Positions 1 through 64,000 are shown, numbered from the stretch's first letter. The stretch: 64,000 nucleotides of DNA from a virus (IMGVR_UViG_3300028599_000003); one strand, 5' to 3'. Notes: generated by a model from the sequence alone, not told the origin. Program-made: numbers and translations.

Positions 1-492
1 GCTAATGAAGAGGTTATGAGTTTATTTAAAAATCAATCAACTGATTTTGATTTAGATCCAATATCCACGCATGCAGAAGAATATCTTAAATCTAAGTTAG
101 AGACATTTGCTTTTGGTTTACATGGCTATGTTGATTATTATACAGTTGACACTGAGACAAAGACAGTTACAATATGTGACCTCAAAACATCCGGCAAGAC
201 TGTAGATAATTTTTCTGAAAGTGTTGACTTTTATAACTATTGGTTACAGGCAGCTATATACTCTAAAATGGTATATGATTCTCTTGGACAAGATAGAGAT
301 GACTACACAATAACATTTAAGTTTATAGTCATTGATAAGTATAATCAAGTATATGTTTATGAAGTATCACAAGAGTCAATGGTCAAATGGGCTGAGGGTT
401 TAGGTGGTGTTTTAAAGATTGCAGATTATCATTACAGTGAGAAAAACTATTCATTACCTTATGATTTGTTAATAGAAAAGGTTAAATTATAG
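1..492 (+). CDS. PD-(D/E)XK exonuclease (RecB/Cas4-like), 5'-truncated by the window edge
   Basis: Frame is open from base 1. Motifs G(Y)VD...CDLKTSG and YWLQAAIY are typical of PDDEXK_1 phage exonucleases. Confidence 0.8.
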   Translation, partial: ANEEVMSLFKNQSTDFDLDPISTHAEEYLKSKLETFAFGLHGYVDYYTVDTETKTVTICDLKTSGKTVDNFSESVDFYNYWLQAAIYSKMVYDSLGQDRDDYTITFKFIVIDKYNQVYVYEVSQESMVKWAEGLGGVLKIADYHYSEKNYSLPYDLLIEKVKL

Positions 493-493
493 T

Positions 494-1072
494 ATGGGTG
501 TATATTTAGAATATTTTCAAAAAAGCAAAGTATTTCTTTATCCTTTACTAGAAATAAAGAAAGGCATTACCCGTGTACCAATACAAACGTATGTTGCATG
601 GGATAATGTCTATTCTACAAATGACCTTAAGTTTTTATGTGTTTACACAACAAAAAAAAACCCAAAGTTCAATAGTTTTGTAAACAACAACTTAATGAAA
701 CATTCATTGCTTGAAGAAGTGATAGAGTTAAAAGAAAACAAGCACTTGTTTATTTATGATTTTACAAAGTTTAAATCTGACTATAAAAAATTCCTTGAAG
801 GTAAATATTCTCAGTACAGTTTAAATAGTAAAATTAGTATAATAGATTTCTTTGGAACACAAGATAAGATTGGATCATACGTTGAAGGATTTCTTACACC
901 AGAAGGTGTGCATGAAGAATATGCTGAATTCCTAGGTGTAAATATAAAATCTGTAGAAGATATATATGAAGTATGTACTCCTCCTGATCTTACCAAAGAA
1001 ATGTTAATTGATAATAATCATGTTATTAATCAATTATTAAAAAATAGTTCCATATCTTTGACAAATAAATAA
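494..1072 (+). CDS. hypothetical protein (192 aa)
   Basis: ORF starts 1 nt after the upstream stop, within the replication cluster. No motif recognised. Confidence 0.75.
   Translation: MGVYLEYFQKSKVFLYPLLEIKKGITRVPIQTYVAWDNVYSTNDLKFLCVYTTKKNPKFNSFVNNNLMKHSLLEEVIELKENKHLFIYDFTKFKSDYKKFLEGKYSQYSLNSKISIIDFFGTQDKIGSYVEGFLTPEGVHEEYAEFLGVNIKSVEDIYEVCTPPDLTKEMLIDNNHVINQLLKNSSISLTNK
1053..1060 (+). promoter_or_regulatory. Bacteroidota-type -7 promoter element (TATCTTTG)
   Basis: Exact TAnnTTTG match 18 nt upstream of the ATG at 1079. No clear -33 TTTG. Confidence 0.4.
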
Positions 1073-1078
1073 TAAATT

Positions 1079-1495
1079 ATGGCAAACCAAATTGGACAAA
1101 ACATGATGTTAGTAAATTCTACTTTTAGAAATACTAAATCATTTACTTTAATTCCTGTGAGCTTAGACTCACCTTACACAGAAGCCATGTTTGACCCAGC
1201 GTCAGGCATATTAGCAGTCATCAGTAAAGTGATGAAACAATCTTATCATATGGTACCTAAATTGGATGATGATGGTCAACCGCAAAGGTTAAAAAATCCA
1301 AATCCACAAACAGGTAAGACACATAAAGAAGAAAGAAGATTGGTAGATACATTTTCTGAGTTTTATCTTAGTGATAGAGCTGATATAGAAACATTCATTC
1401 ATATGTTTGCAATTAATGCTGATAACTTTTCAGTTGAAGAATTCTTTGTAGACTTACAGAAGACAGAACCTTCTAAAATAATTATTCCGGGCTAA
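1079..1495 (+). CDS. hypothetical protein (138 aa)
   Basis: ORF with an A-rich leader, followed by a terminator. Confidence 0.75.
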   Translation: MANQIGQNMMLVNSTFRNTKSFTLIPVSLDSPYTEAMFDPASGILAVISKVMKQSYHMVPKLDDDGQPQRLKNPNPQTGKTHKEERRLVDTFSEFYLSDRADIETFIHMFAINADNFSVEEFFVDLQKTEPSKIIIPG

Positions 1496-1535
1496 TAGGC
1501 TTCCCATACTATCCACCTATTAGACTGGTACAAAG

Positions 1536-1561
1536 AAACCTCATTGATTTGGGGTTTTTTT
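1536..1561 (+). terminator. intrinsic terminator
   Basis: AAACCTCA-ttgatt-TGGGGTTT stem followed by a T run. Confidence 0.7.
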
Positions 1562-1586
1562 GGCACTAATATTTAAAAGTACAAAC

Positions 1587-3578
1587 ATGAAACATTGGGT
1601 AATGGACTATGAGACTTTATCTAATTGTTTTACCGGGGTATTTGAACACTATAAGACTACTGAAAGGAAAATCTTTGTTGTTCATGACCTGCGTAATGAT
1701 TTAGATAGTTTCATAAGTTTCCTTGAAGAAAATATTAACAACAGAGAGTGGCATATATCCTACAATGGATTAGCTTTTGATGGCCAAGTCACTCATTATA
1801 TAATAGATAATCACTTTTTGTGGTCTGATTTAAGCGGTTGTGAAATTGCTCAAATCATTTATAAGTATGCCCAACGTTGTATTCAAAAATCTAATGCAAA
1901 AGAATTCAGTGATTACCCTCAATGGAAGATGCAAATAGGTCAGATAGACATATTTAAATTACATCATTGGGATAATCCAGCTAAACGTTCAAGTCTTAAA
2001 TGGATCCAGTATAGTATGGATTGGGAAAACATTCTAGATATGCCTATTCATCATGAGACAGAAATAAAAACTCAAGAAGAAATAGATATTATCCTTGAAT
2101 ATTGCATTAATGATGTTAGATCTACAAAAGAAATATATAATAGATCTAAGTCTCAGGTTGGCCTAAGAAAAGAACTAACTGCAACTTATGACATTAACAT
2201 GTTTAGTGCATCAGAACCAAGGATCAGTAAAGAAATATTTGGTTATTACTTATCTAGAAGCTTAAATATACCAATGAGAAATCTTAAACAAATGAGAACT
2301 CATAGGGATACCATAAAAGTTAAAGATATAATATTACCATACATCTCATTTACATCTCCTGAGTTTAAACTACTACATGAAAGGTTTAAATCACTTGAGA
2401 TAGATGCATCTAAGTTAAAGGGTAGTTTTAAGTACAACATCTTGTACAAAAATGTTAAGACTCATTTTGGATTAGGTGGTGCACACGGTGCAGCGGCTAA
2501 AGGTGTTTATGAAAGCTCAGATGATATGATTATTATGTCATCAGATGTTACTAGTTTTTACCCTAATCTTGCTATTAAAAATCAATGGTCTCCGGGTCAT
2601 TTCCCAAAAGAAGCATTTTGTGACCAGTATGAGTGGTTCTTTGAGGAGCGTAAGAAGATACCTAAGAGCAATCCAATGAATTATGTATATAAGATTATAC
2701 TTAATTCTACTTTTGGTCTTAGCAATGATATAAACAGCTTCTTTTATGATCCTGAGTTATGTATGAGAATTACAATTAATGGTCAGTTGACACTGATGAT
2801 GTTGTATGAGCAAATAATGGAACGTATACCTGGCGCAATTGCTTTATTGCAAAACACAGATGGTGTAGAAACTATTATACCTAGAGAGCACTATGATTTA
2901 TATATGGAAATATGTGAAGAATGGGAGCGCACTACAAGTTTAAACTTAGAACATGATGAATACCAAAAATTGGTACTTTCAGATGTTAATAATTACATTG
3001 GTGTAAACAACTTTGTAAACGTTGACATTACTAAGTGGAGAGAGATTAAACAGAGTCAGCCTCATTACCTATTTAAGGTTGAGAATGATAAGTTTAGCTT
3101 TGCCCCTGTTAAGCTTAAAGGTAGATTTGATTTTCATAACCTGCAGTTACATAAGAATAAGTCTAAGCTAGTGATCCCAAAGGCCATATATCAATACTTT
3201 GTTAATGATGTACTACCAGAAGATTACTTAGAAGAGAATAAAAATATTCTTGATTACTGTATAGGCGGTAAATCAAAAGGTGATTGGCAACAAGTAGCTC
3301 GTAGTATAAAAAATGGTTCCTTTAATGAAGAGTCTTTGCAGAAAATTAATAGATATTTTATATCTAAAGATGGTGTAAAGATTATTAAAGTCAACAAAAA
3401 TGACGGGCGTGAGATTCAATTAGAAGCAGGTAGATGGGTACAAACAGTCTTTAATAAGATGAAAGTGGCTCCTAAATGGTCTGACTATAATATAGATAAG
3501 CTATATTATATGCAAGCTATTGAAGCAGAGATTAATAGTATATTAACAGTAAATACAAATCAACTAAAATTATTTTAA
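1587..3578 (+). CDS. polB: family B DNA polymerase with 3'-5' exonuclease
   Basis: Exo motifs DYETL, YNGLAFD, YCINDV; polymerase motifs DVTSFYPN, KIILNSTFG, NTDG. ATG 1587 is preferred over TTG 1560, which lies inside the terminator. Confidence 0.93.
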   Translation: MKHWVMDYETLSNCFTGVFEHYKTTERKIFVVHDLRNDLDSFISFLEENINNREWHISYNGLAFDGQVTHYIIDNHFLWSDLSGCEIAQIIYKYAQRCIQKSNAKEFSDYPQWKMQIGQIDIFKLHHWDNPAKRSSLKWIQYSMDWENILDMPIHHETEIKTQEEIDIILEYCINDVRSTKEIYNRSKSQVGLRKELTATYDINMFSASEPRISKEIFGYYLSRSLNIPMRNLKQMRTHRDTIKVKDIILPYISFTSPEFKLLHERFKSLEIDASKLKGSFKYNILYKNVKTHFGLGGAHGAAAKGVYESSDDMIIMSSDVTSFYPNLAIKNQWSPGHFPKEAFCDQYEWFFEERKKIPKSNPMNYVYKIILNSTFGLSNDINSFFYDPELCMRITINGQLTLMMLYEQIMERIPGAIALLQNTDGVETIIPREHYDLYMEICEEWERTTSLNLEHDEYQKLVLSDVNNYIGVNNFVNVDITKWREIKQSQPHYLFKVENDKFSFAPVKLKGRFDFHNLQLHKNKSKLVIPKAIYQYFVNDVLPEDYLEENKNILDYCIGGKSKGDWQQVARSIKNGSFNEESLQKINRYFISKDGVKIIKVNKNDGREIQLEAGRWVQTVFNKMKVAPKWSDYNIDKLYYMQAIEAEINSILTVNTNQLKLF

Positions 3579-5207
<1,629 letters not shown>

Positions 5208-5225
5208 TAAACTAAAAACTAAATT

Positions 5226-5525
5226 ATGGATTATTTTGAATTAGAATGTGCAGTTGAAAGCTGGGCAGAAGAAAAAGGTATCTTTGACAAAGCCACACCA
5301 ATGGCCCAAGCGTTGAAGACATTAGAAGAAACAACTGAGCTTTGCACGGCTATCAATGCTGATGACCGTGAAGAGATTGTTGATGCTATGGGTGATATTA
5401 TGGTCACCCTGATTATTCAGGCTAAGATGCAAAATGTATCTTTAGAATATTGCCTTAAGTCAGCTTATAATGTTATCTCTAAACGTACAGGTAGAATGAT
5501 TAATGGACAATTTGTAAAAGATTAA
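5226..5525 (+). CDS. MazG-like nucleotide pyrophosphohydrolase
   Basis: KTLEETTEL and DAMGDIMVTL match the EExxE...ExxD acidic pattern of the all-alpha NTP-PPase fold. Confidence 0.8.
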   Translation: MDYFELECAVESWAEEKGIFDKATPMAQALKTLEETTELCTAINADDREEIVDAMGDIMVTLIIQAKMQNVSLEYCLKSAYNVISKRTGRMINGQFVKD

Positions 5526-5556
5526 TTTGCTGTGTCAGATTAATTTATTATATTTA
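5526..5556 (+). promoter_or_regulatory. Bacteroidota sigma-type promoter (TTTG-N19-TATATTTA)
   Basis: TTTG at 5526-5529, 19-nt spacer, TATATTTA at 5549-5556 (consensus TTTG-N19-21-TAnnTTTG), 20 nt upstream of ATG 5577. Confidence 0.55.
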
Positions 5557-5576
5557 CACTTCAAAAGTTTAATATT

Positions 5577-6458
5577 ATGGGACATAAAAAACCAACAGAG
5601 ACCACAAGGTCTTATTTAGAGAATGCACCCTTACCTAATCATGGTAAGACATATACAGTTGTCACACACAAAGAGGTGATAGACAATACGTTAACCCTGC
5701 TCAGAAAGAGCGGGTTCACAGTTCAAAGAGAGATATACAGAGCAAATACTAATGCTACAATTGCACAAGGTATTTATCATATCTATCCTAGTAGAAGTGT
5801 TGATGATGAAATCATTAATGAAACTGAATTAGGGATGATGTTTGCTTGGACAAATTCATATAATAAACTTGTTAGATTCCAGTGTGCTATTGGAGCTTAC
5901 GTTAAGATTTGTTATAACGGCATGGTTGCCGGGGATATGATGAATTTTAAAAGAAAGCATACCGGGACGGCAAATTTAGATTGTTCTATAAACATTGCTG
6001 ATCAAGTTAAGAATGCTGAAAAGTATTATAAACGTATTATCCAAGATAGAGATGCAATGAAAATGATCACTCTTACTGATAGAGAACAAGCTGAATTAGT
6101 AGGTAGAATGTTTGTACAAGAAGAATTGATTGATTCTCAACAAACATCTATTATTAAAGCTGAGCTAGCTAAACCATCATTTCATTATGGGACAGAATCA
6201 AATACCTGTTGGACTTTTTACAATCATGTTACACATGCATTAAAGAAAGCACATCCACGGTACTGGTTACAAGATAGCCAGAACTTTCATGACTTTATTG
6301 TTGCAGAGTGTTTGAATAACTCTCAACCTGCCCTAAAGAAAGAGACTATATTATCTGACAAAGTTGTAGTTATTTCTGAACCAGTAAGTGAAGTTGTTGA
6401 AGTTGATGAAGATATAACTGACACACAATTAATAGAAAATGTATTTTTAGATCAGTGA
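5577..6458 (+). CDS. DUF932/DUF945-like protein
   Basis: YTVVTHKEVI, NSYNK..RFQCAIGAYVKICYNG and WTFYNHVT resemble the NS-DG...CxNG family pattern. Confidence 0.6.
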   Translation: MGHKKPTETTRSYLENAPLPNHGKTYTVVTHKEVIDNTLTLLRKSGFTVQREIYRANTNATIAQGIYHIYPSRSVDDEIINETELGMMFAWTNSYNKLVRFQCAIGAYVKICYNGMVAGDMMNFKRKHTGTANLDCSINIADQVKNAEKYYKRIIQDRDAMKMITLTDREQAELVGRMFVQEELIDSQQTSIIKAELAKPSFHYGTESNTCWTFYNHVTHALKKAHPRYWLQDSQNFHDFIVAECLNNSQPALKKETILSDKVVVISEPVSEVVEVDEDITDTQLIENVFLDQ

Positions 6459-6529
6459 AATTAATAGTTGCACTTTTATTAGCTATACTCTTTTTATACA
6501 TTAGTAGTCAAAACAAAATGAATAAATAG
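6455..6529 (+). CDS. putative 24-aa hydrophobic peptide (VKLIVALLLAILFLYISSQNKMNK)
   Basis: GTG start overlaps the upstream TGA (GTGA); single hydrophobic helix. Below the ORF-track length cutoff. Confidence 0.35.
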   Translation: MKLIVALLLAILFLYISSQNKMNK

Positions 6530-6583
6530 GAGAAAACCAACCGGGGTCTGAGTTACGCATTCTTAGGCCCTGGCTCCTTATTT
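6524..6583 (+). other. long bulged RNA hairpin
   Basis: 12-bp inner stem 6541-6552/6562-6573 (with G-U pairs), 9-nt loop, 8-nt A-rich bulge, outer stem 6524-6532/6574-6583. Confidence 0.55.
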
Positions 6584-6607
6584 AATTACCCTACAAAAGA
6601 AAAACAC

Positions 6608-6799
6608 ATGAAGAAATTTCTAGAGTTTGCTTTAATATGGTATAGTCAGCAGATGGCAATACCTTTTTGGGTTATAGGTCATGTGCACTTATCAATAAAT
6701 ACATATAAAGACATACATGAAATTATTGCTAGCATGGGATTAAACCTGATCGTAGCAATAGGCTTTATTATAGACTATCGTAAAAATAAAGACAAATGA
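6608..6799 (+). CDS. small membrane protein (63 aa)
   Basis: Two hydrophobic segments and a basic C-terminus. Confidence 0.65.
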   Translation: MKKFLEFALIWYSQQMAIPFWVIGHVHLSINTYKDIHEIIASMGLNLIVAIGFIIDYRKNKDK

Positions 6800-6814
6800 A
6801 AACACCAAAGAGAA

Positions 6815-7114
6815 ATGAAAAAAGCTGAAACTAGAAAAGCTACTCCAGTATTTACTGGTGTTCTTAGATACTTCCCGGATGCTATTATGGAAATAGCTCG
6901 TGTATCCTTACAGGGAAACAAACAACACCATCCTGATAAACCTTTGCATTGGGACCGCACTAAATCTAATGATGACTTTGATGCATTAGCTAGACATCTT
7001 ATTGATGCAGGTACTATGGATGATGATGGAATTCGTCACACCGCAAAGGTTGCTTGGCGTGCTCTTGCATGTTTACAAAAAGAACTAGAAGATGCTGAAG
7101 CAATTGAAGAATAA
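6815..7114 (+). CDS. DUF5664-like dATP/dGTP diphosphohydrolase-domain protein
   Basis: G-x-x-KH/Y...W...DALARHL...H-x-A-x-VAW pattern. Confidence 0.7.
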   Translation: MKKAETRKATPVFTGVLRYFPDAIMEIARVSLQGNKQHHPDKPLHWDRTKSNDDFDALARHLIDAGTMDDDGIRHTAKVAWRALACLQKELEDAEAIEE

Positions 7115-9913: not shown

Positions 9914-9923
9914 TTTGTTTTTT

Positions 9924-51182: not shown

Positions 51183-54100
51183 TATCTTTGTGATAGTAAA
51201 AGTTTAGTATTATTTAATCTCAATAACATCTTTCTGTTTCCAGATACATTTCTACGTAAAATAACATTATTAGAATAATGTCTAAACTTCTTACGTTGAG
51301 TAGCACTCTTTGCATAATTAATGTTAATGTAATTTAATGGTCTTACATAACCATTACATGATGTATCAAATATAGGCTGCTCTGCATTTGTGAATTCTCC
51401 TCTGTCATTAGTTACATCCCAAAATTGATTAAATCTAAATTTGTGTTCTACTTTAGAAACTAGTATTTGTATACCATTAAATTGTAAAGTTGGAAAGTCT
51501 AAGTTTGTCCAAGGACTATTAACTGGTTGTGGATTTAATAATAGTAAACCTGATGTTTGATCATTATTATAAATAATAGAAGCATCAAAGTTAAAATCTA
51601 AATCTTCCCATTTATCTCCACCACACATATTATATTGTGGGTCTCCTTTATATACATAAGTTTCTAATTGATATTCAAAACTTCTTACTGTATTAACAGA
51701 TTGACCTGTATTAGATATTAAATCTATTTCCCAAGGATAGTCTTCACCATAATAATTTACAAATGAATCACATCTTACATTGTGTCTCCAAAATCCTCCT
51801 ACATTATAATTAGGTGTTACAGAATCAAAATAGAAATAATTACATATTAATGGTGTTGGATCTATCCAAGTTGGATCTCCAATAATAAATATACCAGGAG
51901 CTGTATCTGGACATGTTCCTGATTGAGTTGTTGTTGATCCTGGAACTGTTGATGTTGGACATTCACAAGTTACCTTTCTACATATTGGAGGAGTTACGTC
52001 ATCACATGCACCAGATGTTGCAGTATAAGTAGAAGTAACCGGATCTAAAAATACTTTAGTATATCCTGCTGGACAATCACAAGTAAAATCAGTACCACAT
52101 ACAGCTCCTGCAATTGCTGTTGCTACACTTTGAAAAGTTGTTGGGTCAGATGCATTAATACCAAATTGAAATGGATCAACATTTACTGGCCCATTTGACA
52201 TAGATATATCATTCAATACACCCGGAGTTGGTGGTATTGAAGAAGTTGCACCACAATACATTGCATAAACAAATTGATATGCTGGAGCAGTACCTGCACC
52301 AACAGATGTAAAAGTTTGACCAACATTATTACCTGGTGCACTAGTTGTATCTGTAATAAGAATCTGTATAGCTCTATAATTAGGTTGTGATGTTCTATCA
52401 CCTAATGTTGAATTAGCTGGATTAGTTAGTATGCCATTACCAGTCTGTAATCCTAAAAGTACATTAGTTGAGCCACCAGTCCAGTTTGCATTATACCAAG
52501 CAGTAGCTTGCGCTTCTGTTATTGTATGACTCATTGTTACACCTCCCGGCATAGTATAAACACGTGCTGCACCATCCCATACATCAAATCCAATTTGCAT
52601 TTGACTGTTGGACATAAATGTTTGTATTTGTGGATCATTTAAAAATGCAGTCAACCAAGTTTGTTGAGCCGCTCTTCTACCAAACTGATTAGTACTACCA
52701 GATACATCCATTGATATTACTACATCAACTAAACAATTTACAGGACCACCTCCTATTGTAGCTGCAATGTTTTCTATAGTTACTTCAGCAGGTATTGATT
52801 CATTAATCCCTATCTCACATAATCCAGTAGTAGAATTAAAATTATATCCCGGAGGACATTGTGGTATTGTAGTAGTTACTGTCTTAGTTGTAAAGAAATG
52901 ATTTATACTAGGTAAAGCTAACTCAGGATGCCAGTCATGAAAAGATATCCATGCTTTAGACTTTGGATCATAAGACACTGTCCATGAGCAATCATCAAAA
53001 TATACTGGATCACCAATATCAATACTTACTGGTACTCTTGCCTCTCCTCTTATTTCTACAGGTTTAAACGGTCTATCAACAAATGTTGCTTGACCTATGT
53101 AGTCAGGCTTCAATTGATAATCTTTTTTCATAAAGTAGACTATATCATCTACTGAATCATACATTACTTGACATCCTACTCCTGCTACAGGATTATCTGT
53201 CCATTGTGTATTTTCTGAACTTGGAAATTGTTTTATAAATCTAGAAGGTAAGTATTTGTTAAACCACCATTTCATTCCATTATTAGATATAGGGTCCATA
53301 CCTTTACCAGCATATTGAAATATTTTACCTTGTTGTTGAGATATAAAAAATAATCCTAATGGTGTATTAATAACACCTCTTAAACTTTCACATGATCCAT
53401 ACTCATTTGACAAATCTGCATTTGCAACATTTTGGAACGGTTGACTAAATAAACCTCCGTCACCTATAGTAAGCTTTGTGTCTAGTTGAGTCTTTAATGT
53501 ATCAAGACCTTGAAACATTTGAGGAGATAAATAAGGGAAGAATATTAATGCTCCATTCTTATTTATAGGTTTAATAACACTTACTTCATTTTTAAAATCT
53601 TTATAGTTATTATTTAAAAACACTCTCCAGTAATCTCTTTTTGATTCTTCCTGTGCTTGTAATGAATAAATTAATCTTTTTGGATAACTAACAAAACATG
53701 TCTCAGAAACATATGGGTCATAATCCCTAGGTTGCACCTGACCAAATGAAGTCATTTGAGTTGGAAACTTTGATCCAGACAATGAATCATCATACTTATA
53801 AAAGTTATCTGCTTTAATATTATCAGCATGAAATAGTACACCTAAGTCATTATACTCATAAGCGTCATAGAATCTTTTATCTGGTGAATCTTCCCAATCT
53901 CTATATGCTAAATTAACTTCTGACTCTACAAAGAATTCATTAATCCCATTTATATGAGTATACATATATGCCCTTTTCATTTGAAAAGCAGGATTTAAAT
54001 TTCCACCTCCACCTGAACCTCCAAACAGACTTCCAAAAAGATTTGTGCTTTGACAGTTTCCAGATCCTCTATCTAAATAAAATTGATTTGTTGGTAAAGC

Positions 54101-57100: not shown

Positions 57101-57313
57101 AATAACACCACATGATAAGTTTGATGGCTCATTGCCAATCATTCCTATATCTCCATCCTCAGAATTATTTGCTGCATTCCTTGCATGCCACCATGCTTGT
57201 TGACCTTCAAATGAAGGAGCAACATCTTTATTCATACCTTTAGTAAATGTATTTATATTTACTGATGATGAACCTTTGCCCTGTGGTTGAGGAGGTGTTT
57301 CCTTTTTAGCCAT
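51182..57313 (-). CDS. tail muzzle / tail stabilisation protein (crAss-like) with inserted vWA domain (2043 aa)
   Basis: N-terminal NTFTKGMNKD, NEPSN, WTVSYDP...WISFHDW; follows two ring-protein genes; DVSGS MIDAS-type motif at about 52694-52708. Confidence 0.72.
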   Translation of the reverse strand: MAKKETPPQPQGKGSSSVNINTFTKGMNKDVAPSFEGQQAWWHARNAANNSEDGDIGMIGNEPSNLSCGVIPYTVIGAIHRYGDEWIVFSTDNVSSEIGRFDDSECKYTTLVNDPCLNFTKKHLITGAAKENFDCTWEVYWDDANNPSRALNIDDIPWKKVQITGPDIDGDPCVRYEIIEPKKLDCQEIRLAPLVDTPCIELDKATDGGMLRNGTYQAFIAYVENEQKVTDYIGISNLQSLFSHQGSDSSLNIKVSNLDQDYYYYELVLLMRNQGQTLAKRIGLYSTEQSDINIDFIDPALPAIDLKLIPLRSPAYEKSESMFVVNDWLIRQGPTEQFDFNYQPIANQIQTNWVINSLSSKYYTLGGNKLGFMRDEQYAFFIRWIYNTGERSSSYHIPGRAPENYNGTMENEIVFGDNVLNTDGEPLFKVYNTATATNLNLNEPQEDNSLVIARGKMGYWESTELYPSNRPDIWGNLCGKPIRHHKMPDESIGGANSPLHISTTDGDNINLVGVEFTNIGRPKYNDGSYIENVVGYEILRGSRQGARSILAKGMFKNMRKYDIPDSENILGNSQGLYPNYPYNSLQHDVFFQDGTRNKTTENFCDQGDFTGSINHYEPLKGFTKDVFSFHAPDLMFAKPFLNAYETKIYGNIHGKSAGRFTPSEDHPQFKLLRPAAASLAVVIGIGYALNAVQGTTNKKALPVQGLNPVYAPWFVGGFTNGGTVTGGFTAAPASIGALAIGNAIWDILLDTLLDDLVDFADIYAGGIVSSTQLNIQGATNFVKTAVPGTQGGGIEEGTVYDKPEAAMPSLLRGIIGVSMAQKNIAIGGDEIIDLFYNMVSFYDFVLKYNSTGFFNNFAKINQNDIFRTKNNDSNYIGSSFQTFDGIKYKINNLFRPSTVAVSTEKELAIPTTVDYSRFALGGYVRTDGSVNDFQNSLIKDFSKAERQTSISALYGALKFNFDNQYGQLDGIKQIQMRGCVELLDNNLPPEALYTSKPIFSGDVSINRYTEKCIMPIFTNFLKGQPNGHAFDYSLYVNIPYPRFWLNSTKFDISNMAREVATLGLASGSWEDALPTNQFYLDRGSGNCQSTNLFGSLFGGSGGGGNLNPAFQMKRAYMYTHINGINEFFVESEVNLAYRDWEDSPDKRFYDAYEYNDLGVLFHADNIKADNFYKYDDSLSGSKFPTQMTSFGQVQPRDYDPYVSETCFVSYPKRLIYSLQAQEESKRDYWRVFLNNNYKDFKNEVSVIKPINKNGALIFFPYLSPQMFQGLDTLKTQLDTKLTIGDGGLFSQPFQNVANADLSNEYGSCESLRGVINTPLGLFFISQQQGKIFQYAGKGMDPISNNGMKWWFNKYLPSRFIKQFPSSENTQWTDNPVAGVGCQVMYDSVDDIVYFMKKDYQLKPDYIGQATFVDRPFKPVEIRGEARVPVSIDIGDPVYFDDCSWTVSYDPKSKAWISFHDWHPELALPSINHFFTTKTVTTTIPQCPPGYNFNSTTGLCEIGINESIPAEVTIENIAATIGGGPVNCLVDVVISMDVSGSTNQFGRRAAQQTWLTAFLNDPQIQTFMSNSQMQIGFDVWDGAARVYTMPGGVTMSHTITEAQATAWYNANWTGGSTNVLLGLQTGNGILTNPANSTLGDRTSQPNYRAIQILITDTTSAPGNNVGQTFTSVGAGTAPAYQFVYAMYCGATSSIPPTPGVLNDISMSNGPVNVDPFQFGINASDPTTFQSVATAIAGAVCGTDFTCDCPAGYTKVFLDPVTSTYTATSGACDDVTPPICRKVTCECPTSTVPGSTTTQSGTCPDTAPGIFIIGDPTWIDPTPLICNYFYFDSVTPNYNVGGFWRHNVRCDSFVNYYGEDYPWEIDLISNTGQSVNTVRSFEYQLETYVYKGDPQYNMCGGDKWEDLDFNFDASIIYNNDQTSGLLLLNPQPVNSPWTNLDFPTLQFNGIQILVSKVEHKFRFNQFWDVTNDRGEFTNAEQPIFDTSCNGYVRPLNYININYAKSATQRKKFRHYSNNVILRRNVSGNRKMLLRLNNTKLLLSQR

Positions 57314-57319
57314 AATATA

Positions 57320-58234
57320 TTATCTCTTTGGTCCTGTTACTACTTGAGGGTTAGCAGGCGCATAACTTAAAAACATATTGTAATAATTATGATACTGTGC
57401 TCTTCTGTTCATATTCCAAACTTTTCTCATTTCTTGGAAGTTTGGTGTATTAACAAAACCTAATGCGTTATTTCTTGCTCCTCTTAGTCTACTTTCTACT
57501 AGCTGTAATTGTTGAGATACATTCTCACCATTCCAAACCATATTTTCTAATATTCTTTGTTTTATTGCATACTCATAATATTCATTGCAATATGGTTGAT
57601 CTAATACTAATAAATCACCCTCTGCATTTTCCATAGCACCTTGGTAACTTAAATAGACTTTTCCTGTATTAAACGTAGTTATTAAAAAACCATCTTTTAC
57701 TTCTGCTATATCTACTGCTTGTGCACCTAGACTAGGACAGTAACAAACTTTATCATTAACGTCTTTGATTCTTAATTCAGTCCAAGTATTAAATGTTCTA
57801 AATTGACCACCCCCTATTCTCTGAACTAATTGATAACTATCTTTATCATTACATGTTTTAACAACACATACATCTTTACATACCTTTCCATCTTCACATG
57901 GTGCTACATCACCAGGAGCAGGAACATATGGTACGTCATTGAATGTTTCAACATGGGTTCCTGATGGCATTGTGCTATTTACAGTGTATGATCCACATCT
58001 AAATGCGTAGTTTAAATATTGAAAATCAAAAGGTAATTGACCTTTACCATGTTCTATATCTATAATAACTTCTTTAGTTCTATGTATACGTAACCCTAAA
58101 TCATAATTTACACGTGTTGCAACTTTAATAAGTTGAGCAGGTTCAATTAATCCTTCAAGTGCATACGTTGAAAAATCAATGGAAACATCTTCCATCAATT
58201 GACTAAAAGTTCTATATTTTTGTGATACCCCCAT
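57320..58234 (-). CDS. tail ring / tubular adaptor protein (304 aa)
   Basis: Position between an IHF-like gene and the muzzle, as in crAss-like tail modules; YLSYQG...D...YEYAIKQRILE. Confidence 0.55.
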   Translation of the reverse strand: MGVSQKYRTFSQLMEDVSIDFSTYALEGLIEPAQLIKVATRVNYDLGLRIHRTKEVIIDIEHGKGQLPFDFQYLNYAFRCGSYTVNSTMPSGTHVETFNDVPYVPAPGDVAPCEDGKVCKDVCVVKTCNDKDSYQLVQRIGGGQFRTFNTWTELRIKDVNDKVCYCPSLGAQAVDIAEVKDGFLITTFNTGKVYLSYQGAMENAEGDLLVLDQPYCNEYYEYAIKQRILENMVWNGENVSQQLQLVESRLRGARNNALGFVNTPNFQEMRKVWNMNRRAQYHNYYNMFLSYAPANPQVVTGPKR

Positions 58235-58245
58235 TGTTGTATTTT

Positions 58246-58920
58246 TTAAGTTCTTGCTATGTTACGTTTGTTATCTGAATCTTCAGATGGTATTTGTAAT
58301 GTACCTGACATAGTAGCAATAACTTGGCTTTCTATTTCTGCAAACAATGCTTCTGGTATGTAAATTTCTTGCTCATATCTAGGGGTGCAATCATTTTCTG
58401 TATCACAATCCCATTTAGTTATATCTGAGTCAAATACACCTTCTACTTTAATTGCATCCCATGCAATGTTTGGACAGTAGATGTAACCATCTAACCACCA
58501 AAAATATAATGTTTTGTTATATCTAAAAGAAGTACTTTTTGTTAATGATGTATATGTACCAGGTTGGGTTCCTTGCAGCTCTTGTGAACCATCTATTGAA
58601 CTAATGGTACGTATTAATGGACCCCAGTAACCTTCAAACATTGAAGGTAATCTATGTTTTGAACGTTTTATTGTACAACCACTTTGTATTCCAGCACAAT
58701 GAGCTTCAACTTTATCTACTTCAATTAATTCTACATATGGTAATGTTTTCCATACTGAATTAAATTTTAATAATTTATTTGCATAATCTTGCCTTCTCAT
58801 TAAAAACTGAGCATACTTTTCAATTAAGCTATAGATATATCTATCAGTGACAAAAGCATCTTGAACTCCTGCTTTTACTTGGCCTCTAATTCTTGATACT
58901 ACGTCTGCTATTGTTGCCAT
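58246..58920 (-). CDS. tail ring / adaptor protein (224 aa)
   Basis: Synteny plus LYFWWLDGYIY...VEGVF pattern. Confidence 0.55.
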   Translation of the reverse strand: MATIADVVSRIRGQVKAGVQDAFVTDRYIYSLIEKYAQFLMRRQDYANKLLKFNSVWKTLPYVELIEVDKVEAHCAGIQSGCTIKRSKHRLPSMFEGYWGPLIRTISSIDGSQELQGTQPGTYTSLTKSTSFRYNKTLYFWWLDGYIYCPNIAWDAIKVEGVFDSDITKWDCDTENDCTPRYEQEIYIPEALFAEIESQVIATMSGTLQIPSEDSDNKRNIART

Positions 58921-58925
58921 GTTTT

Positions 58926-59492
58926 TTATTTTTCAAATTCATTATAATACTTTAATGCTTTAATGGTTTCTTCAGGGTTTTCATCATAAAGATGAGCCAC
59001 CTTGTATTTATTTTTCATTACTACATATTTGGTCCAATTGATGGGGTAAGTTTTTGCAACAGTTCTTTTAAAATCTCTGCATGCTACAAATCTCCACAAC
59101 TCCCTATTTTTAAATCTATATTTAGTTGAGTAATTTGTATAAAATATTTTACCTAAATTTCCATCTGTTTCCCAGTTTTTATTTTGTAAGACTTTACCAT
59201 ACTGATTTGAAAGAGCATAATTAGTATTCACTGATTTTGATGAAGGACATGTACCAATAAATAGATACCCTAATGAATCAGGCAACTCTACACCATCTCT
59301 ATTCTCTACTACAGCATTCCAAAGTCTAACATTATATATATTTATTATCTTTTTTAATTTAACGTTATCTATGTCAGAGTATAAAGGTTTCTTGTCTTTA
59401 AACTCTTTGATTGTTTCTTCATTTAATAACCCCATTCTTTTCTCTCTATATCTAGGAGCTTTCAAATCAGGTTTTTTGAAATTGTTGATCAT
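58926..59492 (-). CDS. HU/IHF-like DNA-binding protein (188 aa)
   Basis: Helix followed by VELPDSLGYLFIG (HU-type V.L..FG.F); basic; crAss-like gene order. Confidence 0.6.
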   Translation of the reverse strand: MINNFKKPDLKAPRYREKRMGLLNEETIKEFKDKKPLYSDIDNVKLKKIINIYNVRLWNAVVENRDGVELPDSLGYLFIGTCPSSKSVNTNYALSNQYGKVLQNKNWETDGNLGKIFYTNYSTKYRFKNRELWRFVACRDFKRTVAKTYPINWTKYVVMKNKYKVAHLYDENPEETIKALKYYNEFEK

Positions 59493-59505
59493 ACAGTTAT
59501 ATTTA

Positions 59506-59516
59506 TAATTTACAAA
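59506..59516 (-). promoter_or_regulatory. variant upstream motif TTTGTAAATTA
   Basis: One mismatch to TTTGTATATTA, 14 nt upstream of ATG 59492, overlapping the upstream terminator tail. Confidence 0.5.
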
Positions 59517-59549
59517 AAAAACCCCACTTAAAGAAATTTAATGTGAGGT
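59514..59549 (-). terminator. intrinsic terminator
   Basis: ACCTCAC...GTGGGGT followed by a long T run on the - strand. Confidence 0.6.
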
Positions 59550-59551
59550 CT

Positions 59552-60775
59552 TTACAATGCTTGATAAGTTAATTCACATATATTACCCATTGTAGGGTGT
59601 TGTATTTCTAGTTTACCTGAACGTCTATTGCCTACATATTTGTTACTATAATGATAGTAATCTGTTTTACCCAGGCTAGGTAACGTCTTTTCTATAAAAC
59701 CTGCTGTTTCATTTGATGTCATATATTCAACCTTTCTGTCTGTATGTATATGACCTTTAAATAATGTTCTGTTTGTTGTGTCACCCCAAGCTTTTGGATA
59801 CTCTGATGCATATATTAAAGGATTATTCTTGCTACGCTTATCCCCATGTTCAAATGCATTAAAGTTATTATGCCATACATGAACCTTTCTTTCTTCATAT
59901 TTTACATCCCATGTTATCTTATCACAGTCTATTGATCTTGAGAGAGCATGAGCTAAATGATAAGAAGAAAGTCTATCATGATTTCCCGGAACATATACTA
60001 CTACTAATTTGTCACAAAAAGATTTAATATATGTTACAGCCCAATGCATTGCATCAAATGCTTGTACATAAGCCTCTGTAGCGCTCATACAGTTGTCTAA
60101 AAGTGTTCCGCTTGTAGTTGTGCCCTGGAAGGTATCCATGTTGATTAAATCACCTCCTACAACAAAGTACATAGTTTCTATGTGATGTATAGCATTTGCT
60201 CTACTAACTAAGTTCTTAACTGTATCTTCAAAATCTTTATCTATGGTATCATTACCTTCTTTGCCAAAATGAATATCTTGTAGAGATATTACTGCACAAT
60301 GTGGATCATCAGTAAATTTATTTTTATAAGGTATATTTGATATTTTGTATTTTTTGGGAGTCCAGTTTTTTAGTAAGTCTTCAAATAGTTTTTCTTCTGG
60401 ATTTTTTATTTGTGATACTAATGCTGAAACTCTCCAGTGATCACCCATTTGTTTATTCCAATACTGAGACAATTTCCATTTATCAGTGTCTATCTTTAGT
60501 AAGATTATTATTTCTTCTGCACTTTTAGGCTCATGATCAAAAGTTCCAGATAACTTCCCAGTTCCATTTTCTAAATCAATTGCTTCTGCAATTTGTGCAT
60601 TGTCTGCAGCTTTACTAAAAAATATAGATTTCTTTCTTTTGTTTTTTCTTTCTGCTAATAATTCTTTTTTTACTTTCTTATATTGCTTTTCTGTAATGTT
60701 CAGTTTTTCAGCACAATAAGATGGGTGCTTTTTCCATTTTAAACTGTCAAGAACTTTTTGCTTTATATTATCCAT
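59552..60775 (-). CDS. calcineurin-like metallophosphoesterase with basic N-terminal domain (407 aa)
   Basis: DIHFG, GGDLIN, PGNHD, EHGD, GHIH motifs. Confidence 0.85.
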   Translation of the reverse strand: MDNIKQKVLDSLKWKKHPSYCAEKLNITEKQYKKVKKELLAERKNKRKKSIFFSKAADNAQIAEAIDLENGTGKLSGTFDHEPKSAEEIIILLKIDTDKWKLSQYWNKQMGDHWRVSALVSQIKNPEEKLFEDLLKNWTPKKYKISNIPYKNKFTDDPHCAVISLQDIHFGKEGNDTIDKDFEDTVKNLVSRANAIHHIETMYFVVGGDLINMDTFQGTTTSGTLLDNCMSATEAYVQAFDAMHWAVTYIKSFCDKLVVVYVPGNHDRLSSYHLAHALSRSIDCDKITWDVKYEERKVHVWHNNFNAFEHGDKRSKNNPLIYASEYPKAWGDTTNRTLFKGHIHTDRKVEYMTSNETAGFIEKTLPSLGKTDYYHYSNKYVGNRRSGKLEIQHPTMGNICELTYQAL

Positions 60776-60800
60776 AAGTTAAATAATTTGATTTTTTTAT

Positions 60801-60810
60801 TGTAAAGATA
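60801..60810 (-). promoter_or_regulatory. Bacteroidota -7-like element TATCTTTACA
   Basis: Near-consensus TAnnTTTG, 26 nt upstream of ATG 60775. Confidence 0.4.
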
Positions 60811-60812
60811 AG

Positions 60813-60845
60813 AAAAAAAAAGAGACTGGAATATATCCAGCCTCT
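60813..60845 (-). terminator. intrinsic terminator
   Basis: AGAGGCTGGA-tatat-TCCAGTCTCT followed by a T run. Confidence 0.8.
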
Positions 60846-60893
60846 TCCAACGTTTGTAGTAGAAAACCAACAAACCACCACGTGTTGTTTTTT

Positions 60894-61454
60894 TTATGCT
60901 GACAGAGTTGAAATAAGTATTTCAATTGGTTTACATCCTGTGTTACCAGCATCTACAACTTTAACTTTATATGCTGTACTAGCAGTTAAATTTGTTATAG
61001 TAAAGTTATTTACTGTAGGTACAATAGGTCCTAGTGGATTAGCTAATGTCCATCCTACAGGTGATATTTGTTCATCAACATATACATTTAAACCTGTGCT
61101 GTTACTCCATATTCCATCCCATATAACTGAAATAGTACTACCTGTTACTGCACCTGCATAAACATTATATGGATCATGTTGTACATCATTTGAAGTACAT
61201 GTCCCAAGGCCGTTAGATAATATCATAGAAAACTTTTGTATAATAGAATCTAATCTTTCACCAGAAGTTATAACTATTCTACTACCAGGATCACCTATTT
61301 GAAAAGATGTTCCACAATAGCTTACACATGAAGCACACTGCACATCATCACACCTTTCACTACCTGTACTACAATCAGTATAGGTACATGCATTAGTTAT
61401 TGCTGTGTCAGCACAACTACATTTTTGACTACATTTTGTACAATTACATGCCAT
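60894..61454 (-). CDS. Cys-rich + FN3-like structural protein (186 aa)
   Basis: 11 Cys in the first 47 aa; ISVIWD...FTITNLTASTAYKVKV FN3 pattern. Confidence 0.7.
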   Translation of the reverse strand: MACNCTKCSQKCSCADTAITNACTYTDCSTGSERCDDVQCASCVSYCGTSFQIGDPGSRIVITSGERLDSIIQKFSMILSNGLGTCTSNDVQHDPYNVYAGAVTGSTISVIWDGIWSNSTGLNVYVDEQISPVGWTLANPLGPIVPTVNNFTITNLTASTAYKVKVVDAGNTGCKPIEILISTLSA

Positions 61455-61480
61455 TGTTTATTTTTTTATTTTTATTTATT

Positions 61481-63715
61481 TTAGGTTAATGGAGTACTGC
61501 CTCCACAACCAGATATTATTAAACTAGATATTGTACTTGGATCAGTGCTCGTAGTATACGTAGCTCCTGTTCCAGTTGCAAGCTCTCTCCAAGGATATAC
61601 TGCTGGACTTATTGTTCCACCATTATCCCAATCCATATTAACACCTGCTCCCATACAGAATACTTTAATTCCATTATTATTACATGTTGTTATCAATGAC
61701 AGGATTCTAGAGTATGTTGTCATATTCATTATATCTTCATCTCCTCCCGGTAAATTATCTGTAATTAGTATAACATATTTTGCAACATTGTTTCTAAATG
61801 CTCCATTAAATGCAGCACCTCCAACTACTTGTTGTAGTGCTAAATCCATTGGTTCAGCTCCACCTGCTCCTGATCCCATGTTAACACAAGTACCATCTAC
61901 ACCTCCAGCTAATTTATTTAGCTGAGTTGTAAATGCAGTTCCGTTATCATTGGCAAACATTTCCCAAGCAGTATATATTAAATTAGTTCCGGCAGAACCA
62001 GCAACAACTAATCTTTGTGTTGTTGGAAGAACTGTGTAATCAGCACAAGTACCATAATTTGGATCTCCACTAGTTTCATCTACAGTAGTTAAACCTATTC
62101 TATAATTATTTGATCCTGATGAAGAATCTATTGTACTTACTAAATTAGCCGCTCCTGATTGTATTGTTTGAATTTGAGATGTCATACTACTTGTATAATC
62201 TACTAAGAATACTACATCCATACCTTGACTACATGGTGCATCTGCTGTGAGTGTTTCAATTGCTATATTTGGACAAACATTTGACCCTCCACTTATAGAT
62301 ACCGTTAATCTAATATTATATACTGTTTGTGGTATTAAACCTGAAAATGATCCTGTTACGCTAGATCCTGGGTTGTTTATAGTATCTGTAGCTACAACTG
62401 TACCAGAAGAATTAATTACTTCTATAAGGTATGTTGCTGTAGTTCCTAATAAATTATTAAATTGGAAATTAAAAGAATTCTGTGTTATACTACTTATAGT
62501 CATAGATGGACAAGGAATAATTCCTGTTATTAAACTAGATTGCGTTTCAACACATGTATCATTTCCATCTGTAACACTAAACTCAACTGTTGCAGTTAGA
62601 TCTGTAGCAGTATCTAATGATGCTACATTTACACTTATACCTGTAGAATTATTCTGTAATGATGATACACTAACAATTTGCTGAGTTGAAACACCTTTAG
62701 AATCAACTATTGTGATTTTACTAAAACCTGCACTATCATTAAATGTACTAGGTATAGATGAGTTTATAAAGTTAAATACTACGTCTGTTATTAAACCTGT
62801 ACCACCACTGATAGTATTTGCAGTAGTATATGAGAATATAATTCCATCACATCCTCCAGGACAACAATTTGTTTGAATGCTTGTAATAGCTGAATACATA
62901 TCATCAATCACAACCCATGCGTTTTGCATAGACTGAGCTAATGTAGAAGCTGAATTATTCCATCCAACTATACCACTATATGATGCATCACTATTTGATA
63001 ACTGAGTATATGAACCTGTTATTGCAGATTGTGAAATTGCAGAATTTATAGCAGATGGAAATCCAACTGCATTTCTTAATTCACAAAACGCACTTTCTAA
63101 TGCTAGTACAACTACTGAAACATTAGTTAAAACCCCTACATTACTTATACATGTAGGTACAATTTGAGCTTCTACAACAGCACCACTACAAGGTAATACA
63201 CAAGCTTCTAGTACATCTATTCTTGTATTTAAACTTGTTAATGTTGAATTGATTGTATTAATACTTGCTAAATTAGTACATACTTGATTTGCTATAAGTG
63301 TAGCAAATTGATCTAATGGAAGTTGAGTTACTGGATTACCGCTTGCATCATTATACTGCATACATGCAGGTAATGTCATTATAGGAAGAGAAGCAGTAGA
63401 TTTATCATTTCCACTACCACTATCTGCATTTAAACATATTTGATTAACCATTGCCTGTAAAACAGGAACAAGTTGAGTAGGCGTAGCACCTCTAACATTT
63501 AAACAAGTAATATCTAACCCAGTAAGATTAGGGTTCATATCTACACCACTTTCTAAAAGGTCACAAACCTTAGTTGCAAGTTTAAATACAACTTCACTAA
63601 TAGAGTCACCATTACATAGGTCTATACAAGAAATATCTGGCCCTTGCCATATTACACAATTAGAAGATATATTATCACATCCATTTGTGGTGCCGCTTGA
63701 GTTCGTTGGGATCAT
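61481..63715 (-). CDS. Cys-rich/coiled-coil + FN3 + vWA structural protein (744 aa)
   Basis: CDNISSNCVIWQG module; FSGLIPQTVYNIRL (FN3); DVVFLVDYTSSM...RIGL...YVILITD (vWA). Confidence 0.8.
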   Translation of the reverse strand: MIPTNSSGTTNGCDNISSNCVIWQGPDISCIDLCNGDSISEVVFKLATKVCDLLESGVDMNPNLTGLDITCLNVRGATPTQLVPVLQAMVNQICLNADSGSGNDKSTASLPIMTLPACMQYNDASGNPVTQLPLDQFATLIANQVCTNLASINTINSTLTSLNTRIDVLEACVLPCSGAVVEAQIVPTCISNVGVLTNVSVVVLALESAFCELRNAVGFPSAINSAISQSAITGSYTQLSNSDASYSGIVGWNNSASTLAQSMQNAWVVIDDMYSAITSIQTNCCPGGCDGIIFSYTTANTISGGTGLITDVVFNFINSSIPSTFNDSAGFSKITIVDSKGVSTQQIVSVSSLQNNSTGISVNVASLDTATDLTATVEFSVTDGNDTCVETQSSLITGIIPCPSMTISSITQNSFNFQFNNLLGTTATYLIEVINSSGTVVATDTINNPGSSVTGSFSGLIPQTVYNIRLTVSISGGSNVCPNIAIETLTADAPCSQGMDVVFLVDYTSSMTSQIQTIQSGAANLVSTIDSSSGSNNYRIGLTTVDETSGDPNYGTCADYTVLPTTQRLVVAGSAGTNLIYTAWEMFANDNGTAFTTQLNKLAGGVDGTCVNMGSGAGGAEPMDLALQQVVGGAAFNGAFRNNVAKYVILITDNLPGGDEDIMNMTTYSRILSLITTCNNNGIKVFCMGAGVNMDWDNGGTISPAVYPWRELATGTGATYTTSTDPSTISSLIISGCGGSTPLT

Positions 63716-63766
63716 AAATGTTTTATTTTACTATAATGTACTGCGTTGTTGTAAACTATACATTTA

Positions 63767-63777
63767 TAATATACAAA
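63767..63777 (-). promoter_or_regulatory. recurring upstream motif TTTGTATATTA
   Basis: Exact copy 52 nt upstream of ATG 63715. Confidence 0.55.
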
Positions 63778-63824
63778 ATTTTTTAAAACCAAACAAGTTA
63801 ATGCTAGTTTTAAAAAATTTTGTA
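63772..63824. repeat. perfect 18-bp inverted repeat with 17-nt spacer
   Basis: TACAAAATTTTTTAAAAC (63772-63789) / GTTTTAAAAAATTTTGTA (63807-63824). Confidence 0.8.
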
Positions 63825-63844
63825 AACAGTTATGAGAATAAAAT

Positions 63845-64000
63845 TTAAGCTTTTTCTAAAGGGGTGTCTTCTTTCTCAATATCAGATATAGTACCATCTT
63901 CAAGGCTAATATTAACTGAACCATATTTTGTCTCTAATGATTCACTTACAGTTTTCCATTCAGCTTGCAGTTCTGAATGTTTAGATACTAATTGATTCTT
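63845..64000 (-). CDS. small coiled-coil phage protein, 5'-truncated by the window edge
   Basis: Hand translation: KNQLVSKHSELQAEWKTVSESLETKYGSVNISLEDGTISDIEKEDTPLEKA*. Confidence 0.65.
   Translation of the reverse strand, partial: KNQLVSKHSELQAEWKTVSESLETKYGSVNISLEDGTISDIEKEDTPLEKA

Follow-up and report, generated by a model that had tools for sequence, protein, structure and literature searches.

Known cases of word avoidance in phage genomes concern words of 4-8 bp that are mostly palindromic and are lost symmetrically from the two strands. Bacteriophage T7 escapes the restriction enzyme EcoP15I by keeping its sites in one orientation (PMC3874151), and natural strand-specific nickases with sites of only 2-3 nucleotides (nt) are described, namely N.BceSVIII (S^RT) and Nt.CviPII (^CCD) (PMC3592412, PMC3017599). 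Suppression of CpG by methylation and deamination is documented in vertebrates and in Mycoplasma with M.MpeI (cited in PMC11282364). Here we analyse a stretch of 64,000 nucleotides (hereafter the window) that covers 64 kb of the viral genome IMGVR_UViG_3300028599_000003, a single contig of 90,577 bp with a CheckV completeness of 79%. The trinucleotide TCG and its reverse complement CGA have nearly vanished from this genome, and the few surviving copies are strongly biased to one strand.

Depletion and strand polarity of TCG and CGA

Unless a count is called sense, it refers to the + (top) strand of the window. This strand contains 385 CG dinucleotides, with an observed/expected ratio (O/E) of 0.23, and the CG deficit comes with an excess of TG and CA. 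Relative to a first-order Markov expectation, TCG occurs 21 times where 134 copies are expected and CGA once (position 54970) where 107 are expected, and TCGA is absent from both the window and the full contig. A preliminary description of the sequence, which by eye had found about 20 TCG, this one CGA and no TCGA, was thus close to exact; it had also noted that ACGT and CCGG are common, and these occur 103 and 54 times, respectively, with ACG, CCG, CGT and CGG all above expectation. Extending the count to the whole contig gives 39 TCG and 3 CGA, the two most depleted of the 64 trinucleotides. The sole CGA of the window (54970..54972, + strand, in the context TTTACGAAGTT) is a sense TCG at codon position 2 of a late gene of 2043 amino acids (aa) on the - strand (51182-57313).

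Synonymous-codon shuffles within the genes of the contig (n=300), which keep both protein and codon usage, also show the depletion and its asymmetry. In + strand genes, sense TCG is found 16 times versus 85 expected and sense CGA once versus 115 expected, while in - strand genes the corresponding values are 2 versus 86 and 18 versus 186. Expressed as O/E, top-strand CGA stands at about 0.01-0.03 and top-strand TCG at about 0.1-0.2 in both gene orientations. All three codon phases are affected, and in + strand genes the junctions of a C-ending codon with a GAx codon (xxC-GAx), which had rightly been expected to yield many CGA, are nearly gone (one observed). Intergenic DNA of seven strongly depleted genomes likewise carries 38 top-strand TCG versus 2 CGA. 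Codon usage and amino-acid composition are rejected as the cause by the shuffles together with these intergenic counts, which upholds the earlier proposal of a strong force at the DNA level.

The imbalance tracks the genome strand and not the coding strand, as the preliminary description had recognised and as both gene sets in the shuffles and the intergenic counts confirm. The - strand late block (16929..64000) contains 15 + strand TCG (sense CGA) and the one + strand CGA (sense TCG), and across the contig an arginine CGN codon follows a T-ending codon in 0 of 72 cases in - strand genes versus 10 of 74 in + strand genes. Of the 32 pairs formed by a trinucleotide and its reverse complement, CGA/TCG alone leans to the same genome strand in + and in - strand genes; no dinucleotide has a consistent genome-strand bias, and four-fold degenerate sites show no consistent general skew. 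In pooled tetranucleotides the ratio TCGT/ACGA is 115:12 in + strand genes and 136:28 in - strand genes, and TCGG/CCGA and TCGC/GCGA are polarised in the same way, whereas ACGC/GCGT, ACGG/CCGT and CCGC/GCGG change sides with the sense strand, as expected of coding effects. A two-factor decomposition of the synonymous-shuffle O/E (top-strand x sense-strand) assigns a top-strand factor of 5.5 to this contig and of 2.1-11.3 to nine larger relatives, with a smaller sense-strand factor of 1.3-5. No sign switch in the TCG:CGA ratio occurs along any genome examined.

The flanks of surviving copies are flat and hold no information beyond the trinucleotide (454 + 1357 contexts), and since survivors lack an extended context, the unit is the trinucleotide itself. 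Among polar words of 5-7 nt, nearly all top 5-mers contain TCG or CGA, next to a few weakly polar words with CpG. The 7-mer AACCTGC is about four times as frequent as its reverse complement in both gene orientations (16:4 and 61:15, pooled over G000, G008, G009, G010, G013 and G014), and CCCGC and ACCCG are polar in a similar manner; such words may be strand-polar in their own right or may reflect protein motifs that recur. In the contig and five relatives, palindromes are mildly avoided in the classical way, with CATG at 0.63, GGTACC at 0.27 and GGATCC at 0.39 of expectation. CGCG is missing from the contig.

Selection versus mutation

Sharing of sites was scored in independent pairs of close relatives (86-98% nucleotide identity), relative to the other CpG trinucleotides in the same pairs. 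Top-strand CGA was shared in 12 of 60 cases in the polymerase block, versus 27 expected, and in 6 of 24 in the late block, versus 14 expected (a barely depleted outgroup pair being set aside). Sharing of top-strand TCG resembled that of other CpGs, and its positions are mostly unconserved between relatives. Changes were polarised in 34 trios, each made up of two close relatives and an outgroup, by relating the number of transitions that create a CpG (T>C, A>G) to the ancestral sites at which they could have arisen. Top-strand CGA was gained 20 times in 16,994 opportunities (rate 0.0012) and top-strand TCG 37 times in 17,179 (0.0022), whereas the six other CpG trinucleotides were gained 909 times in 69,772 (0.013). 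Transitions that create CGA and TCG are thus 11 times and 6 times rarer, respectively, than those making other CpG contexts. Ancestral top-strand TCG was lost in 22% of cases (11/49), inside the 12-28% range of other CpGs.

Hypermutability would speed up the loss of the motif, whereas here it is the gains that are suppressed, which favours selection over hypermutation. CpG trinucleotides turn over faster than others between relatives, and the differences are dominated by CGA<->TGA and TCG<->TCA/TTG transitions. Where CGA is replaced between relatives, TGA (30 cases) prevails over CAA (5), corresponding to a synonymous C/T exchange at the flank. Deamination of the bottom-strand TCG at xxC-GAx junctions would alter Asp or Glu, yet synonymous flank changes are seen, which argues for selection on the word itself. 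Taken together, these comparisons of related sequences point to ongoing purifying selection on the phage DNA against the bare TCG/CGA, rather than hypermutation or codon usage; new copies are filtered out, and the few established copies sit in tolerated places. The preliminary description had offered selection or mutation (restriction, or deamination of 5-methylcytosine (5mC)) as the cause, and it is the selective part that the data favour, given the filtered gains. Methylation-driven decay is disfavoured, as TCG loss is not raised and searches of complete relatives for C5, N6/N4 and D12 methyltransferases (PF00145, PF01555, PF02086) returned none.

Spread over relatives and controls

Counts on the full genome and on relatives, a check that had been proposed, show that the bias is widespread in the phage lineage. 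A polymerase search yielded 206 relatives in IMG/VR, 80 of whose loci were kept for counting; these have a CG O/E of 0.15-0.37 and carry 850 TCG versus 238 CGA on the polymerase-sense strand. A late-gene search yielded 118 relatives, and the 80 loci kept contain 382 sense TCG versus 979 sense CGA, with the same genome-strand bias in 74 loci and a reversed one in 2. Early and late gene blocks therefore share one bias, and an assembly or sequencing artefact is rejected since the pattern recurs in about 200 independent metagenome contigs. The bias among surviving sites is strong but never absolute: compared with the 39 versus 3 of the contig, relatives retain 16-103 TCG versus 5-41 CGA. Top-strand TCG is spaced at one per 1-7 kb, and one genome (G004) has 0 in 19.5 kb of + strand genes.

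Across the polymerase tree, top-strand CGA is in most cases nearly absent. Partly relaxed are the tip clades L031/L036/L063, L029/L030/L034/L042 and L053/L054 and the locus L033, as well as the basal L072-L080 group. The clade L059/L065-L070/L075 is about symmetric and among the most depleted. In two members of this symmetric sub-clade (L065:6959-9530 and L067:10001-12572) the polymerase match spans about 2570 nt versus the usual 2010 or so, which suggests an insertion such as an intein, an intron or an extra domain. A comparison of gene content between strict and relaxed genomes gave one lead only, a PhoH-like ATPase gene downstream of the polymerase (L093:17228-17890 (+) and homologues), which is present in 9 of 18 relaxed loci (O/E >= 0.1) and 2 of 62 strict loci. 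These PhoH loci represent only about four independent clades, the gene is absent from the phage of the window, and we treat its link to relaxation as a lead rather than as the outcome of an association test.

CpG poverty as such does not entail the loss of TCG and CGA. Bacterial contigs of a metagenome-assembled genome (MAG) that shares its bin with a relative have equal GC and a CG O/E of 0.2-0.3, and keep TCG and CGA at Markov expectation, while the phage contig in that same bin has 8 TCG versus 22 expected and 2 CGA versus 31 expected. The cultured crAss-like Cellulophaga phage phi14:2 (KC821624.1), with a CG O/E of 0.46, carries 312 TCG, 316 CGA and 92 TCGA at a strand factor of 0.96. Flavobacterium phage FpV4 (KT876724.1; L246+L247) has only 106 CG in 88 kb (O/E 0.06) and a strand factor of 1.17, and follows the opposite context rule, in that its surviving CpGs are mostly TCG (57) and CGA (45), including 15 TCGA, with ACG and GCG depleted. 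Since the CpG-poor MAG contigs, phi14:2 and FpV4 all keep TCG and CGA, the ban is specific to the phage lineage and no corollary of CpG poverty, and a by-product of general CpG depletion is rejected. Context-specific filtering of CpG may be common and host-specific among Flavobacteriia phages. In phi14:2 (L099+L100), CCGG occurs 0-1 times in 100 kb, a classical HpaII/MspI-type avoidance, while the phage of the window has its 54 copies.

Two regions concentrate TCG. Four copies lie at 6750, 6778, 6898 and 7033 (+ strand), in two small neighbouring genes (6608-6799 and 6815-7114), where TCG makes up 4 of 8 CpGs and CGA is absent. The preliminary description had located this cluster correctly and had taken the genes as recently acquired; instead, relatives carry conserved counterparts of both (59-91% aa identity) that are likewise rich in TCG (up to 7 of 11 CpGs) and free of CGA. 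Elsewhere on the contig, about 700 nt of the early region contain TCG at 9 of 15 CpGs, every one of them TCGT. Inside this region, about 18.6 kb before the window start, lies a GC-richer non-coding stretch of about 185 nt (L097:18737-18917, - strand) with many short helices and a terminator-like T run at its end, which holds 3 of the 39 TCG of the contig and no CGA.

Phage identity, gene organisation and host

A tail ring module at 57320-58920 matches the Pfam families CrAss_Ring_1 (5.7e-08) and CrAss_Ring_2 (2.2e-17), and the DNA polymerase is 32% identical to that of Cellulophaga phage phi14:2 (Steigviridae, Crassvirales). The genome thereby combines a crAss-type virion module with a replication module resembling that of cultured members of the Crassvirales. 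A megablast search against cultured phages gave zero matches. Shine-Dalgarno-like sequences precede 2 of 71 genes only and leaders are A-rich; A-rich leaders without Shine-Dalgarno sites are a trait of Bacteroidota. Homologues of the ring protein in cultured phages are mostly from Flavobacterium and Cellulophaga phages. This is an uncultured marine crAss-like phage and, based on the missing Shine-Dalgarno sites, the A-rich leaders and these ring-protein homologues, its host is probably of the Flavobacteriia type.

A scan of genome contigs yielded only phage contigs, mis-binned in a 'Campylobacteraceae' MAG and a 'Clostridium' MAG; either group as host is argued against by the missing Shine-Dalgarno sites of the phage. 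The contigs concerned (L101 and L103 in CAKZOX01, 'uncultured Campylobacteraceae'; L102 in JANZQE01, 'Clostridium sp.') thus place one phage family in bins of unrelated phyla, presumably due to a common low GC and low CpG content. With five GroEL genes in JANZQE01, and both bins contaminated, these MAGs are unfit for host assignment.

The window opens within a + strand early/replication block that starts outside it and ends at 7114 (1..7114), and which encodes a DNA polymerase (1560-3578), GroEL (3579-5207), a MazG-like pyrophosphohydrolase (5226-5525), the small conserved gene carrying part of the TCG cluster (6608-6799) and, near the MazG-like gene, the N-terminal domain of a MazZ-like dATP/dGTP diphosphohydrolase (6815-7114; PF18909, 1.6e-11), all on the + strand. 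No PurZ-like gene was seen, so the MazZ/MazG pair is no evidence for a Z-base genome; relatives encode a DUF1599 'nucleotide modification associated' domain and a dNMP kinase. A short - strand block of genes without assigned function (7157..12919) contains zero + strand CGA and zero + strand TCG. It is followed by a second + strand block (13144..16733) with the small and large subunits of ribonucleotide reductase, which shows the same TCG/CGA bias and has a TCG at 13003 in its upstream spacer. The - strand late/virion block (16929..64000) is made up of giant open reading frames (1927, 4616, 1155, 983, 915, 1766 and 2043 aa) and the crAss tail ring proteins. An SbcD-like exonuclease is also encoded in the window, within which no tRNA gene was found, while the contig outside the window encodes a uracil-DNA glycosylase, a DnaB-like helicase, a zinc-ribbon/Toprim primase and an SNF2-type helicase. 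Assemblies of relatives are circular. The apparent direct terminal repeats (DTRs) of four relatives (72-404 bp) lie at differing map positions and are rejected as physical genome ends; they stem from overlaps in the assembly of circular maps. Relative to the stored genome record, the window has five single-base differences (2312, 22514, 24351, 24804 and 43755), four transitions and one C/G exchange, none of which makes or removes a TCG or CGA.

Candidate explanations

Selection is about ten times stricter against + strand CGA (that is, - strand TCG) than against the opposite orientation, independent of transcription direction and reading frame, and superimposed on the general CpG shortage common to low-GC genomes. 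We tentatively posit that it stems from a host defence whose recognition of TCG/CGA depends on orientation or strand, where both the defence role and the origin of the polarity are what we infer. The agent would be an anti-phage enzyme of the uncultured marine Flavobacteriia-type host that recognises these 3 nt in unmodified DNA. It could be a strand-specific nickase that cuts at frequent sites, a Type III-like system that hemimethylates and depends on sites in opposite orientations, or an enzyme acting on the motif in whichever strand is more often present as exposed single-stranded DNA (ssDNA). The phage, without a recognisable DNA methyltransferase, would escape passively by not having the word. 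Depletion varies in strength among sub-clades, being relaxed in several tips and symmetric in one, which is what changing hosts or defence repertoires would produce. We regard it as possible rather than probable that marine Flavobacteriia, or the phage itself, possess an undescribed one-strand reader of TCG, be it a strand-specific 3-nt nickase, an enzyme that modifies bases in ssDNA or a restriction system that hemimethylates and depends on orientation. If so, the cost per site would be high enough that a phage lineage of 110 kb has lost about 90-99% of some 350 expected sites and is still purging them, and the word would be the shortest 'restriction' target recognised as shaping a viral genome, and the first with strand polarity.

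Several observations weigh against a host defence. We know of no restriction or defence system with such a 3-nt asymmetric target and such an effect on phage genomes, and our search of the literature for TCG/CGA avoidance, or for marine methylomes with such a motif, found none. Strand-specific reading of words of 2-3 nt and escape through orientation each have a precedent, but no system that we know of unites the two. The TCG:CGA ratio is heterogeneous among strongly depleted clades (simulated p ~1e-4), a few sites in the opposite orientation persist in nearly every genome, and two conserved regions tolerate or even concentrate top-strand TCGT, which a uniform defence model does not predict. 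Under a Type III-like system the majority orientation should be near neutral, yet top-strand TCG is 5-10-fold depleted and its gains are filtered. Preferential attack on exposed ssDNA would be expected to go with a general strand skew, and there is none at four-fold degenerate sites. The preliminary description had read the imbalance as a hint of ssDNA, replication or injection polarity, a suggestion that gains little from the missing general skew, the missing polarity switch, the circular assemblies and the one symmetric sub-clade; an orientation-dependent reader of double-stranded DNA, whether Type III-like or a nickase, fits about as well.

A mutational origin would make the C of TCG a hotspot, through a deaminase preferring TC(G) or a polymerase error more active on one replication strand, with some help from second-order selection. 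It would account for the general CG deficit with TG and CA excess and for the dominance of the above transitions between relatives; the phages encode their own DNA polymerase and uracil-DNA glycosylase, and a genome-wide polarity fits one-directional (e.g. rolling-circle) replication of a circular map. We nevertheless consider it unlikely, because loss of ancestral TCG (11/49) is unraised relative to the 12-28% of other CpGs and the shortfall is one of gains (6-11-fold). Moreover, the vanished xxC-GAx junctions and the synonymous flank changes need selection on the word anyway, there is no general GC/AT strand skew, and depletion differs widely between genomes whose polymerases are 74-90% identical. 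Selection could alternatively originate within the phage, if one of its own DNA transactions reads TCG on one strand, so that accidental copies are purged, with polarity arising from one-way packaging or replication. The candidates are a nickase tied to packaging or to the terminase, a nuclease for the breakdown of host DNA, and a DnaG-type primase; the zinc finger of DnaG-type primases recognises a template trinucleotide. Such a reader would agree with inheritance of the trait across the whole phage clade, with the encoded zinc-ribbon/Toprim primase and DnaB-like helicase, and with TCG occurring every 1-7 kb and in two conserved TCGT-rich regions, as functional sites might. In other phages, nickases with strand-specific sites of 3-7 bp adjoin terminases (PMC3592412). 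Family searches of complete relatives, however, found no HNH domain, and Pfam and PHROGs scans of about 60 phage proteins recognised no nuclease (including HNH), methyltransferase, deaminase or other candidate as reader or protector. Further, top-strand TCG positions are mostly unconserved, the zero TCG in 19.5 kb of + strand genes of G004 is hard to square with required priming sites, primase sites on the leading-strand template have no obvious cost, and the repeated independent relaxation in tip clades is easier to reach via changing hosts. An origin within the phage is an alternative to host defence, albeit an improbable one.

Avoidance of a host CRISPR system with TCG/CGA as its protospacer-adjacent motif (PAM), and with strand-biased spacer acquisition giving the polarity, has in its favour that PAMs are asymmetric words of 2-5 nt, that each copy removed brings a small additive benefit and that there are reports, if weak ones, of PAM depletion in phages (PMC4246573). 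The depletion reported is modest and far from the 10-100-fold seen here, and a uniform genome-wide polarity would be an unexpected outcome, which makes this explanation very unlikely. Least credible is avoidance of a TaqI-like TCGA site, or of several 6-bp TCG...CGA sites, in combination with CpG depletion and AT-rich codon usage. TCGA is indeed absent from window and contig, CATG, GGTACC and GGATCC are mildly avoided and CpG is scarce, yet the half-sites are depleted 5-100-fold in every flanking context, the depletion is strand-polarised, TCG and CGA reach or exceed expectation in two related phages and in bacterial contigs just as poor in CpG, and shuffles that preserve codon usage predict 85-186 copies per class. 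As a sufficient explanation it is refuted by the shuffles, the MAG contigs, the tetranucleotide contexts and the strand factors; the doubt voiced earlier about a double-stranded restriction target was justified, since the half-sites themselves are missing and their loss follows one strand.

Comparison with known systems

The pattern resembles that of T7 and EcoP15I in that an asymmetric site is found nearly all in one orientation genome-wide, which could render an orientation-dependent enzyme harmless. The T7 site is 6 bp long (CAGCAG) and not depleted overall, and T7 genes all run in one direction, so that its bias is possibly a by-product of transcription. Here, in contrast, a 3-nt word without extended context is biased in both gene orientations, even the majority orientation is 5-10-fold depleted, and a few minority sites persist. 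Escape from a Type III enzyme by orientation would leave the remaining orientation neutral, whereas top-strand TCG has an O/E of 0.07-0.31 with gains about 6-fold too few, and in place of an asymmetric site of 5-6 bp the 454 + 1357 survivor contexts reveal the trinucleotide only.

With the classical avoidance of palindromic 4-6-mers the phage shares selection at the DNA level that strips a short word from a genome without a protective methyltransferase, and TCGA is absent here too. The differences are a non-palindromic trinucleotide, a reduction from about 350 expected copies to about 40, and a strand polarity; in Type II palindrome avoidance sub-words stay near expectation and loss is symmetric, whereas TCG and CGA are themselves depleted, and asymmetrically. 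According to the classical argument, very frequent sites are not selectable one by one, so that a small additive cost per site would be required. The nickases Nt.CviPII and N.BceSVIII show that asymmetric words of 2-3 nt are readable on one strand of duplex DNA. To our knowledge, no such nickase has been described for TCG, for defence in Bacteroidota or as a force shaping a phage genome.

CpG suppression through methylation has parallels in the CG deficit, the TG and CA excess and the faster CpG turnover of these phages. It differs in that the extra loss here affects one flanking context and one strand, that creation is filtered rather than loss accelerated, and that no methyltransferase was found. 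The signature of human POLE proofreading mutants in tumour cells, TCG>TTG with replication-strand asymmetry, involves the same trinucleotide and a strand asymmetry; as a mutational process it differs from the present case, in which a general skew, a polarity switch and a raised loss rate are all lacking. Replication-strand asymmetry would in general bring a GC/AT skew and a sign switch at origin and terminus, and these genomes have neither.

No described system that we know of accounts for the TCG/CGA pattern. Short-word avoidance is one of the few readouts of defence pressures on uncultured virus-host pairs, and the motif, its polarity, the sub-clades with and without the trait and the contrasting Flavobacteriia phages together offer a handle on a new DNA-targeting immunity or on a constraint in phage DNA metabolism. 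As a marker linked to host or defence, the signature could further help to sort metagenomic phages. The case belongs to the known kind of short-word avoidance in phage genomes, from which it stands apart in three ways: the word has 3 nt and is no palindrome, hundreds of expected sites are almost all gone, and the polarity follows the genome strand whatever the direction of transcription.

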